NCBI GenBank assembly: GCA_951406725.2
Contig: OX597818.1
Location: 94,612,001 to 94,676,000 of the forward strand
Origin: Octopus vulgaris
Lineage: Eukaryota
DNA: 64,000 nt
Reading direction: 5' to 3'
This document shows, piece after piece, positions 25,897-42,537 of this stretch (positions are counted from its first letter, which is position 1; every line of letters begins with the position of its first letter). Position numbers and translations under genes: made by a program. The notes beneath the pieces are model-generated. The model was not told the DNA's origin. It worked only from the letters and a program-made list of their open reading frames with translations, and ran no database searches.

Positions 25897-25969
25897 TCAC
25901 TGCATTCAACAAATCTTAGAAGGAGTTAACCACTGCCACCAAAATAGTATAATACACAGAGACTTGAAG
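25897..25969 (+). CDS. CaMKII: CaMKII alternative exon '6A' (73 nt), (S)[24 protein letters not shown]
   Basis: TTTCAG acceptor ending at 25896; GTGGGT donor at 25970. Open frame with the HRDLK catalytic loop. Phase 2/0 joins 2500 to 51896 in frame. Confidence 0.93.
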
Positions 25970-26022
25970 GTGGGTGCAGGACGCAAAAATAGTGAAATTA
26001 TGTTCTGTTCCGCAGCAGATAT

Positions 26023-26140
26023 GTTCATGTGTCTCCCACCCACCATCTTGACTGTCTGCCAGCTTGCTTGCTCTCCACCTGCTGGTCACCAGCTTGGCAA
26101 GATTCTCAGCCATGGTTCAAATGACACTAAGTTATATCAG
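26023..26140 (+). promoter_or_regulatory. 5' arm of a putative long-range intronic RNA duplex (downstream of exon 6A)
   Basis: Several colinear helices with 42229-42423. Example: CACCAGCTTGGCAAGATTCTCAGC (26087-26110) against GCTGAAAATCTGCCTAGCTAGTG (42257-42279) gives 20 Watson-Crick pairs. Confidence 0.8.
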
Positions 26141-27479
26141 CTGACATAGATTTCTTTCCTTTACCAGAAGGTCATATTTTACCCACAGTTCTGGCAGCAG
26201 GGTGGGGATTGGTTTCTTTTTAATTATTCACTTCTTATTTTTATTTATTTTATTTTACTATTTTGTTTCTTCCTTTTCCTCGAATGTGTAATGAACTGTT
26301 ATTTCTGTGTGTGAGTATGTAATGAATCAAGTTTAAACTCTCTATAACTCAGTTATTATTGTGTGTTCATTACAGGCATATTACAGATAAACGTTCAAGC
26401 TGAACATCAACCATATCAACCTCACTTATCTCAGTGGGTGTGAAAGTGTTATACACAGTTTCCTTTCCCTCTGTTCAAACGATAATGTGTGAGTGTGTGT
26501 GTGTCTGTGCATGTATGTGTGTCTGTGGTATGATAGAATGAACTAATACCCTATATTATTTAATAACCATTCTGTTCGTTACAGATGTGTGTGTGTGTGT
26601 GTGTGTGTGTGTGTGTGTGTGTGTATGTATGTGTGTGTGTGTGTATATATATATATATATATATATATATATATACATACATGTATGTAGGTAGAGAAAG
26701 TGTGTGCACATGCATGCAATAATGTGTCTTTCTAATGTCCGATTTCATCATGAGACATGGACTACATATTCACAATACATTTAGAGCCTGAACATTCTAT
26801 GGACAATTCCCTAGAAAGATAGGATAATGCTCACACAAATTGTTTGTTGAATTAACACTAGCATCATTGAATGTATGCTATACAGGCATCAACCGAAATA
26901 GCTCATGCTGATTCACTCTTCTTCATAGGATTATCTGTAGCTATATAATTATATGATGGTCATCACCTGGTTAGATGGTCAAAGGAGCTATTCAAAAATC
27001 AGCCAATGACTGTATAAATATATATATATAAATAAAGTGTGTGTATGTGTGTTTATGTATGTATACATACATATATGTATACCTATATGTTTGTGTGCAT
27101 CCAACCCATGCCAGCATAGAAAATGGACATTAAATGATGATGATGATATATATATATATATATATATATATATATATATATACATCTAAGCATATATGTG
27201 TCTGTGTGTGTATATATATATATATACACACACACACATACATACATACACATATGTGTGTGTCTGTGTTTATGTCCTCTTCTATTTTTTTATATGTTTC
27301 AGCCTAAAGGCTGTGGCCATGCTGAGGCACTGCTCGCATCATCACTTTTTTTAGTTGCCATTCCTATCAGGTTGGTTTTTGGTGAGAGAAGGAATTTGAT
27401 ATTATTGCCCTTGTTTGAGTTTGTTGCTTTGATGTAGGTTCATTTGGGGTCTTAGACACCAGAAGGTCTACACAACTCC

Positions 27480-40345: not shown

Positions 40346-42228
40346 GTAAAAATATGTAAAAATTAACACATGTATATGTGTTTGTGTGCTTCATATCTGT
40401 AATTTCATGATGTTACAATCATGTTAAACTGTAACTAATAAGAAGGACGGTGTCATCCTAAAATAAGATCTCTTGACTAATTTCTGTTTCATACTATATT
40501 GAATGACCAATGAAAGACCATGCACTGTCCTAGTTACTTGAAACAGATCAAACAGGTCAGTGACAATAGATAAAAAGACTATGGAAATGTTCTTTACATA
40601 AGTGAGTAATTTCCTCACCAGATTTGTATATATTGATACACATACACGCACGCACGCACGCACACACACACACACACACACACACACACACACATACTTA
40701 TGTGTATACACATACCTCTATCTATCTATCTATCTATCTATTTATATATATATATATATATATATATATCTCACACACACATCATTGTCATCAGTTTATA
40801 TCCAGTTTCCATGCTGACATATGTTGGACAATTCATTACAGTTTGAGTCCTTGTATGTGCTCTTTTAGACATGGCTGGACTGGGGACCACACCTCTATCA
40901 TCTATTGTTATTGGCATATTGTCTACAACTTTATGCCATTCCTCACACCAGCCACATTACACAGTGTACTGGATGCATTTTTTTCATGTCACTAGTACTA
41001 GCAAGGGTGTTGTGTCCTCATTGAGACTAAATGTTCTCCTGAACCCTACAATGTTTCATCCACCAACCTTGTTATGGTGTACAGGATGTATTTATTGTGG
41101 CATCAGTACTGGAGAGATTGTTATGTCCTGGCCAAGACAAGAGTCCTTCCAACCTATTATGTTTCCATTTGTTCACCCACCACTTCATAAAAGGATGCAA
41201 CTTATCCTTATACCATAATTAATGAGGGTTGCCTTGTGTCTGGTTCCTCTCTGCTCTGTGTGATCTCCATTTCAAGGGAAAATGAGTTGAAAAGAACAAT
41301 TGCAGAGAATGGACTAGTGTGAAGTGGAGAGAAGAGGCTGATATTGGTGGAAAAATGAATTGGTAAAACATGATAGATTGTGCTAGAAGAGTAATGAATG
41401 GTAATATGAATGTATACATGGAGAGATAGGCAGCAGTAGCCTAGAAAAATACGGTTGCTGTATGATTAAGAGAGCTTGATGTTTATCACTTAGAAGCAGC
41501 CTGATGGTGAAGGAGTACTAACTAGTCAGCAGTATGGAAGGGGAAGGTAATTTGAGCTAACAAAGAGAGTACAGGTATTGAGGTGACATGGAAAGAGAAT
41601 TAGTGAAGACTGTCAGTGGAAAAGTGACATAGAAGAGAGATGGGCAATGACAATGGTGTGTGCGTTTCAGGAGAGTAAATGAGGTGGAGGTTCATTACAC
41701 ACACGTTCGCTTGCACACACACACACATGTATATATGTATATAAGCATGTATATGTACCCATGCATATCATGTATGTGCATATACATGTATGTATATATG
41801 TATATAGACTGAATTGGCAATCATAAGAATGTTGCATAAAATAGCTTGATATTCATTCCAACTCCCTGTGTTTGAAGTTCAGATCCCTTCCAGGTCAACT
41901 TTATCAATCCTGAAAGGATGAAAGGCAAATAAAATACTAGTCCACTGGGTAGGTGGTGGTGGGGCTGATTAATCTTCTCTTTCTCTCTTTTATCTTTTTT
42001 TTTTCCATCTGAAAGAAATTGGCTATGATCAGACATGGGAGAAGAATGGACTCTGGTAGGTTTAAAAAAGCCCAAGACATACTGTTTTTCTTTACAGTGC
42101 CCCTACGGCTCCATCAGAAGCCAACAACTCAAAAGAATGAAAAAAGTGTGTGTGTGTGTGTGTGTATGTGTAAGAGCATACATTCAGATACACCTAAATG
42201 CATGTATATGGCCTGTTTCTCAATACAC

Positions 42229-42423
42229 TTGAATAGCCTCATCAATGTCCTCTGAAGCTGAAAATCTGCCTAGCTAGTGTACAGAATAGTGGTCGGGCAA
42301 GCAAAATCCAATCCCTCTCCCCTCCATTTATCATCCAAAGCATAGCTGCAGCGGAGTTACTGCACTAGTAATGCATGGGGTAGTCAGTCAGTCAGACAGT
42401 TGTTGCTATGGTGACATGTGAGC
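42229..42423 (+). promoter_or_regulatory. 3' arm of a putative long-range intronic RNA duplex (upstream of exon 6B)
   Basis: Reverse-complementary to 26023-26140 in nested order, with an ~88-nt insertion (42305-42392). Ends ~40 nt before the 6B acceptor. Confidence 0.8.
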
Positions 42424-42464
42424 TGCTTTTTGATCAGCAAATCCATTGTTCTTTCATATTTCAG

Positions 42465-42537
42465 TCACTGCATGCAGCAAATATTAGAGAGTGTTAATTA
42501 TTGCCATCACCATGGTATTGTACACAGAGATCTGAAG
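42465..42537 (+). CDS. CaMKII: CaMKII alternative exon '6B' (73 nt), (S)[24 protein letters not shown]
   Basis: TTTCAG acceptor ending at 42464; consensus GTGAGT donor at 42538. Same length and phase as 6A; 56/73 nt identical to it by hand count. Confidence 0.95.

Follow-up and report, generated by a model that had tools for sequence, protein, structure and literature searches.

In a 64,000-nucleotide stretch of the Octopus vulgaris genome (contig OX597818.1, positions 94,612,001 to 94,676,000, forward strand; hereafter, the window), the gene for the protein kinase CaMKII carries two successive copies, A and B, of the kinase-domain exon equivalent to human exon 6. Our best explanation, some steps of which we infer, is that this exon was duplicated in tandem and that A and B are its mutually exclusive forms, and we give it a probability of about 0.88. 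They are tandem-duplicated homologous exons in the same phase, with intact splice sites. Each is 73 nucleotides (nt) long, with the acceptor TTTCAG and the donor GTGGGT (A) or GTGAGT (B). The two differ at 17 nt, which amounts to 8 synonymous and 7 non-synonymous codons, and HRDLK is identical. Both are flanked by AG and GT, and the details given in an earlier sequence-only reading of the same DNA are all borne out by the sequence. In the numbering of P0002, the A isoform, the switches from A to B are I117M, G123S, H126Y, Q129H, N130H, S131G, and I133V. The exon spans His115 to Lys138 and codes for helix alphaE, the loop that follows, and the catalytic loop with HRDLK. Its best matches in the PDB are CaMKII (E 1.3e-9 for A, 3.1e-8 for B), so the likeness is not a matter of chance, and the switch does fall in the CaMKII catalytic core, as had been proposed.

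The CaMKII frame stays open between the flanking exons (Table 1) with A alone or B alone. Because the exon length is 3n+1, single inclusion alone is productive: joining A to B runs into a premature TAA, and skipping both shifts the frame onto a TAG, both in line with what the earlier reading had predicted. That reading had also called the exons "obligatorily" mutually exclusive. This holds for the protein, since single inclusion alone keeps the frame; for splicing, exclusivity is putative, the long GT-AG intron between the copies being no physical bar to their joining. No third copy was found on either strand of the window (best other score 35 vs. 136 and 141). Exon A has a single match in the genome, and the flanks of A and B are unrelated. 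Within the 2.8 Gb genome, we found one CaMKII locus and no second CaMKII gene in a search that gives a lower bound. Matches to the hub (association) domain, PF08332, lie at C5:94,896,224-94,923,731 on the same strand and form the sole cluster found. These hub-domain exons are ~220-250 kb beyond the window, and the hub exon matches Octopus proteins exactly.

Table 1. Features of the CaMKII exon pair in the window
Feature	Position	Strand	Remarks
Upstream flanking exon, 66 nt	2435-2500	+	Equivalent of human CaMKII exon 5; length and phase match the human exon list
Donor of upstream flanking exon	2501	+	
AG-free CT-rich tract and 3' splice site of exon A	25716-25896	+	178 nt without AG; putative role
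Exon A, upstream copy of exon-6 equivalent	25897-25969	+	Gly123, His126, non-Gly131, Ile133 (P0002 numbering)
GT-AG intron separating A and B, 16,495 nt	25970-42464	+	Repeat-rich
Exon B, downstream copy	42465-42537	+	Met117, Ser123, Tyr126, Gly131, Val133 (P0002 numbering)
TAA met on inclusion of A and B	42495-42497	+	
Downstream flanking exon, 103 nt	51896-51998	+	Equivalent of human exon 7; encodes DFG
TAG met if A and B are both skipped	51945	+	Inside downstream flanking exon

Evidence that both copies work came from codon comparisons of the window exons with the metagenome loci L063, L106, and L107. Window A differs from the A copy of L063 by 14 synonymous and 0 non-synonymous codon changes and from L106 by 10 and 1. 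Window B differs from L063 by 6 synonymous and 2 non-synonymous changes and from L107 by 7 and 2. Judged by these codons, both copies are under purifying selection, and the suggestion that both look selected is borne out by the excess of synonymous over amino-acid changes relative to other animals' loci. The exact A or B peptide also occurs in CaMKII models of O. bimaculoides and O. sinensis (e.g., XP_036358770.1 and XP_052823862.1). Contigs without introns, from other animals, exist for both types: an A-type exon is joined directly to exons 5 and 7 in L115, and a B-type exon likewise in L074 and L112.

The pair is widespread among molluscs and reaches the annelids. In Haliotis asinina and H. 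rufescens, A- and B-type exons occur in distinct isoforms; both types are also present among the isoforms of Patella vulgata, Argopecten, Biomphalaria glabrata, and Liolophura (A in 3 of 14). A alone was seen in Solemya, Pinctada, and Lottia. In wrongly fused gene models from the annelid Owenia and the snail Nucella, A precedes B. Metagenome contigs scanned for a DNA pattern yielded at least 127 stretches, stored as at least 120 loci. Both copies are present in 13 of the 120 listed loci (11 contigs), all with AG/GT flanks, A first, and a spacing of 185-2668 nt, and two further contigs among the listed loci have A then B spread over two loci. Nine of the 13 pair contigs share an identical A peptide and are therefore not independent. 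Taken together, the sequences place the pair and its A-then-B order at least as far back as the mollusc-annelid ancestor. We found no paper describing such a pair in molluscs, annelids, or nematodes, within partial coverage of the literature; the covered parts of PMC4494069, PMC8327911, PMC5740500, PMC12443042, PMC2265522, and bioRxiv 292813 hold nothing on an invertebrate pair, although their supplements, which were outside our scope, could bear on it. Exon A is far more diverged in Biomphalaria (P0364, P0367) and Nucella (P0137) than in octopus, chiton, and abalone.

Beyond the lophotrochozoans, two copies were found in 21 of 477 proteins, comprising 15 from vertebrates, 4 from nematodes, and those of Owenia and Nucella, with none from arthropods. 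The four nematode models are fused (Dictyocaulus and two Steinernema species, with one duplicate) and more diverged than the lophotrochozoan pairs. The Steinernema upstream copy has Gly9, Asn17, and Leu19 (numbered by exon position), and the downstream copy has Tyr12. We built exon trees from 24 columns with 35 rows (arthropod rows and rows without a species name left out) and with 55 rows; at 24 columns, these trees are weak, and bootstraps did not settle. In both, the Steinernema upstream copies nest inside the A clade (support 95/97 with 35 rows and 96/95 with 55). We consider it rather probable, on this sequence evidence, that the nematode pairs stem from the same event as the lophotrochozoan pair. 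The earlier reading left the choice at "ancient or convergent." The pair is ancient within lophotrochozoans and, by sequence comparison, probably within protostomes, and a link to the chordate pair is possible (one bilaterian origin and a vertebrate-only origin both unrejected, AU p 0.20-0.36, below).

Arthropods had a single exon type in all 47 cluster members checked. In nine listed genomic loci (L008, L023, L038, L046, L058, L061, L067, L069, and L093), the one exon 6 is fused to exon 5 and the next intron is kept. Their peptide type suggests that these loci are arthropod. Such a fusion would remove the exon choice, and loss of the exon 5-6 intron may explain why the pair is missing in arthropod-type genes. 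A further locus (L044:4679-6970, minus strand) has intron-separated exons 5, 6, and 7 with one exon 6 and a divergent exon 7, and is a candidate for the pre-duplication state. In a C. elegans survey of 55 putative events, the part available lists unc-43 just for exon 14 acceptors (PMC4165533).

Several results limit or weigh against our interpretation of how the pair is used and how old it is. Among 53 Octopus protein models, A is present in 4, B in 49, and both or neither in 0, which speaks for either-or use, but these counts reflect annotation and not expression. RNA reads from 4 of 24 runs were mapped onto 25860-42600; intronic repeats swamped the output and filled the tables, which showed no exon-level rows. 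Read depth in this repeat-swamped output was 0.06/0.57 (X22), 0/0.93 (X24), 0.04/0 (X21), and 1.17 (X2) in the bin with exon A, and 3.2/1.29 and 0.93/0.69 in the bin with exon B, which may include repeat reads. No A-B joint occurs among the 15 rows listed, of 65, in the same output. B alone appears among the members listed for Mytilus (15), Dreissena (15), and Pomacea (8), and 8 listed loci contain a B-type exon but no A in the stretch from exon 5 to exon 7; loss of A, or a failure to detect it, is thus possible. In favour of the pair, Gly9 and Ile19 mark 11 of 11 A-type peptides and Tyr12 and Val19 mark 9 of 9 B-type peptides, counts that are nevertheless partly circular because the groups were partly assigned by peptide type. 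The Dictyocaulus upstream copy falls outside the A clade in both trees, and plain identity does not speak for orthology, window A being closer to the Steinernema downstream copy (17/24) than to the upstream copy (15/24). A rejection of a lophotrochozoan-only duplication by the approximately unbiased (AU) test with 35 rows (p-AU 0.012) was lost with 55 rows (0.163).

The missing exon-A junction read in the repeat-swamped mapping and the rarity of A in annotation would also fit a dead duplicate or an assembly artefact. We regard this as very improbable given the 14 synonymous and 0 amino-acid changes relative to L063, the spliced A-type contig (L115), and the A-type isoforms in several mollusc classes. 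The unrelated flanks and the single genome match for A likewise speak against it, and the earlier view that an assembly artefact is unlikely stands. In the mapping, intron stretches at ~29800-30900, 31450-32000, 34800-35400, 36500-37600, 39800-40400, and 41500-42070 drew many diverged reads and are high-copy dispersed repeats.

On the reading of A and B as alternatives, the exon would be chosen by regulated splicing, and nonsense-mediated decay would remove messages that include both copies or skip both. Both wrong products have stops with junctions further downstream, so nonsense-mediated decay is a likely safety net, a role known for 14 C. elegans clusters (PMC4165533). B would predominate, and A would be a lesser form, probably confined to certain tissues.

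We considered several mechanisms for the choice itself. Steric exclusion is ruled out by the length of the intervening intron (16,495 nt here, 185-2668 nt in other pairs), and U2/U12 incompatibility is ruled out because all introns are GT-AG and the donors lack the U12 consensus. UGCAUG occurs at -266, -93, and +4 of the exon B start (window 42199, 42372, and 42469), the +4 site being made by Cys-Met codons; there is none within 500 nt of A, and there are 38 sites in the 64 kb. As a conserved mechanism, RBFOX was rejected, since the exonic UGCAUG is kept in 16 of 55 B-type exons and 39 have UGUAUG. The RBFOX sites at B may be lineage-specific. A candidate duplex between 26060-26099 and ~42250-42300 (-42.5 kcal/mol, best of 1272 tiles) would loop out the A-B intron. 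We did not accept long-range RNA pairing, because this candidate lies near the background tail, with other tiles reaching -40.6 kcal/mol, and the probe was chosen after the fact. The 25 longest inverted repeats listed are either microsatellites or a pair of repeats that does not lie at the exons. Comparison with 8 distant pairs gave no conserved flanking element (all z < 3), and the AG-free CT-rich tract before A was not seen in 8 other pairs.

The closest known counterpart is the vertebrate CAMK2D pair, which the sequence-only reading had named and which the literature verifies: human CAMK2D has two versions of this exon, 6v1/6v2 (6A/6B), of 73 nt and in the same phase (bioRxiv 10.1101/721589, PMC8373072). 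In mouse long reads, 6v1 and 6v2 are mutually exclusive, with 6B at ~10% in olfactory bulb and none in heart or soleus, and this kinase-core pair is said to have no known function (PMC12060085). A catalogue of homologous exons lists it as event 41, with proteomic support and the age "Chordata," which there means shared with tunicates or lancelets (PMC8373072); PMC9741552 gives the same age. The catalogue searched 85 chordate events across Bilateria without extending the CAMK2D event beyond chordates, lists just CAMK2D for a human CaMKII exon pair, and, in the part available, mentions no lophotrochozoan or nematode counterpart. The entries it describes resemble ours in being ancient homologous exon pairs with catalytic residues kept and conservative substitutions. 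Human alpha, beta, and gamma CaMKII have one exon-6 copy each (bioRxiv 10.1101/721589). By eye, from the exon list of the same source, alpha and beta carry the v2 peptide; gamma looks, also by eye, like the upstream copy of fused beta-type models from fishes and Lerista. These fused CAMK2B-named or CAMK2B-like models (P0122-P0131, from five fish genera and the lizard Lerista) carry, ahead of the beta exon, an exon 6 of gamma-like type, and from these sequences, CAMK2B seems to keep an exon pair outside mammals.

The octopus and CAMK2D pairs are alike in exon, length, phase, boundaries, tandem arrangement, either-or use, and the frameshift that follows if both or neither are included. They differ in the residues switched: S/A, N/L, L/Q, N/M, and I/V in CAMK2D, with no His/Tyr switch, unlike octopus. 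Spacing is ~0.9 kb in human CAMK2D vs. 16.5 kb in octopus, and the main copy is the upstream one in mouse but the downstream one in octopus, the latter as read from annotations. Octopus database isoform models already contain the same A and B peptides, as automatic annotation without a statement on exclusivity, age, or function. With these models in the database and the human pair published, the earlier surprise at a switch in the kinase core was overstated. Events of this kind were thus known before, as were the pair in vertebrates and the isoform models of octopus; what we found in no paper is the recurrence of the pair with fixed marker residues in chiton, gastropods, and a scallop, and its presence in fused models of the annelid Owenia and of nematodes.

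We put the chance that the octopus pair shares its origin with the chordate pair a little below even. This would mean that the exon was duplicated once, in the last common bilaterian ancestor, and that the pair persisted in chordates, lophotrochozoans, and some nematodes but was repeatedly lost (in arthropods, C. elegans, and human CAMK2A/B/G). The same exon is doubled in vertebrates, molluscs, an annelid, and nematodes, with the same splice sites in the octopus pair and chordate 6v1/6v2, and the "Chordata" age already extends the chordate pair to tunicates or lancelets (PMC8373072). Loss is frequent, with human alpha, beta, and gamma single-copy and single-copy invertebrate loci in existence, and a topology grouping copies by position across phyla survives the AU test (p 0.203 with 35 rows, 0.358 with 55). 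However, the marker comparison revealed no derived residue that either vertebrate copy shares with A or with B. Vertebrate v1 scores 20/24 against both A and B; v2 matches A at 18/24 and B at 17/24, compared with 19/24 between v1 and v2 and 17/24 between A and B within species (fish peptides equal the human ones). Copies of an orthologous pair are expected to be more alike between species than copies within species (PMC8373072), and this fails for the downstream copies (A-v1 20, B-v2 17, A-B 17, v1-v2 19 of 24). The catalogue's search across Bilateria also left CAMK2D at Chordata, and our comparison set was without lancelet, tunicate, echinoderm, or hemichordate sequences.

Convergence, with the same exon duplicated independently in protostomes and chordates, is a reading we hold as possible but tentative. 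The protostome pair has derived states of its own (Gly9/Ile19 and Met3/Tyr12), as does the vertebrate pair (Ala9/Leu11/Met16, in v2), and the change at position 9 lies in the upstream copy in protostomes and the downstream copy in vertebrates. A vertebrate-only clade survives the AU test (p 0.203 and 0.284 with 35 and 55 rows), and a precedent exists in the ACOX1 pair, which is considered to have three origins, one each in chordates, echinoderms, and molluscs (PMC8373072). Still, two gains would be needed at one exon of about two dozen, and 24 residues cannot exclude a short shared stem. Three separate duplications, in lophotrochozoans, nematodes, and chordates, appear unlikely. A nematode-only clade does survive the AU test (p 0.154 and 0.384), position 12 is aromatic in both nematode copies, and the nematode evidence consists of four fused gene models from three named species. 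Gly, Tyr, and Ile are common at the marker positions in kinases generally, which makes parallel change plausible. Yet the Steinernema upstream copies lie inside A in both free trees with starred support, and their order and three markers agree. In its fullest form, a single bilaterian origin would have produced a two-state catalytic-core switch kept for >600 million years in molluscs, annelids, some nematodes, and vertebrate CAMK2D (and fish and lizard CAMK2B-type genes). It would have been split between vertebrate paralogues after genome doublings (alpha and beta with the downstream copy, gamma with the upstream one) and erased in arthropods with loss of the exon 5-6 intron, and it would tune the coupling of alphaE to the alphaC-beta4 loop by cell type; we offer this whole scenario as speculative and somewhat doubtful.

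In the protein, the His/Tyr switch at residue 126 lies at the equivalent of PKA Tyr156, counting back from HRD. PKA Tyr156 is an alphaE residue that bonds to the alphaC-beta4 loop, and this position is Tyr, His, or Phe in kinases (PMC11616992). The other switched residues are in alphaE and the loop before HRD. His128 (PKA His158) and HRDLK do not change between A and B, and all catalytic residues are kept. Both isoforms would thus be catalytically active, their difference lying in how activity is tuned and not in the chemistry, perhaps through lobe coupling or surface contacts. An AlphaFold2 model of the A isoform had a mean predicted local distance difference test score (pLDDT) of 47, too low for use, and its helix 110-129 fits alphaE at low confidence.

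CaMKII splicing has been studied almost solely in the linker. That selection has maintained a pair at the same exon for >500 million years, in animals whose CaMKII gene is single, is an argument for the switch being of consequence. The pair either shifts the age of the event from "Chordata" back to the root of Bilateria or represents a clean convergent exon duplication in a kinase active-site exon. Its main value lies in this question of one origin or convergence and in a clean isoform pair for assay: two octopus isoforms, 7 residues apart, one of these at an allosteric anchor already known, in an animal used as a model of learning. Mutually exclusive homologous exons in a catalytic domain are also a feature of the MAP kinases p38alpha and JNK, in another kinase family and another part of the C-lobe.

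Two further observations concern other parts of the gene. Eight Liolophura models (P0254, P0260, and 6 others) have a 30-residue insert in the calmodulin-binding segment between RRKLK and GAILT. A partial duplicate of the start of exon 7 is present in models P0116, P0119, and P0187 (Haliotis rufescens) and P0120 (Gigantopelta), which may be a second duplicated exon or an assembly error.

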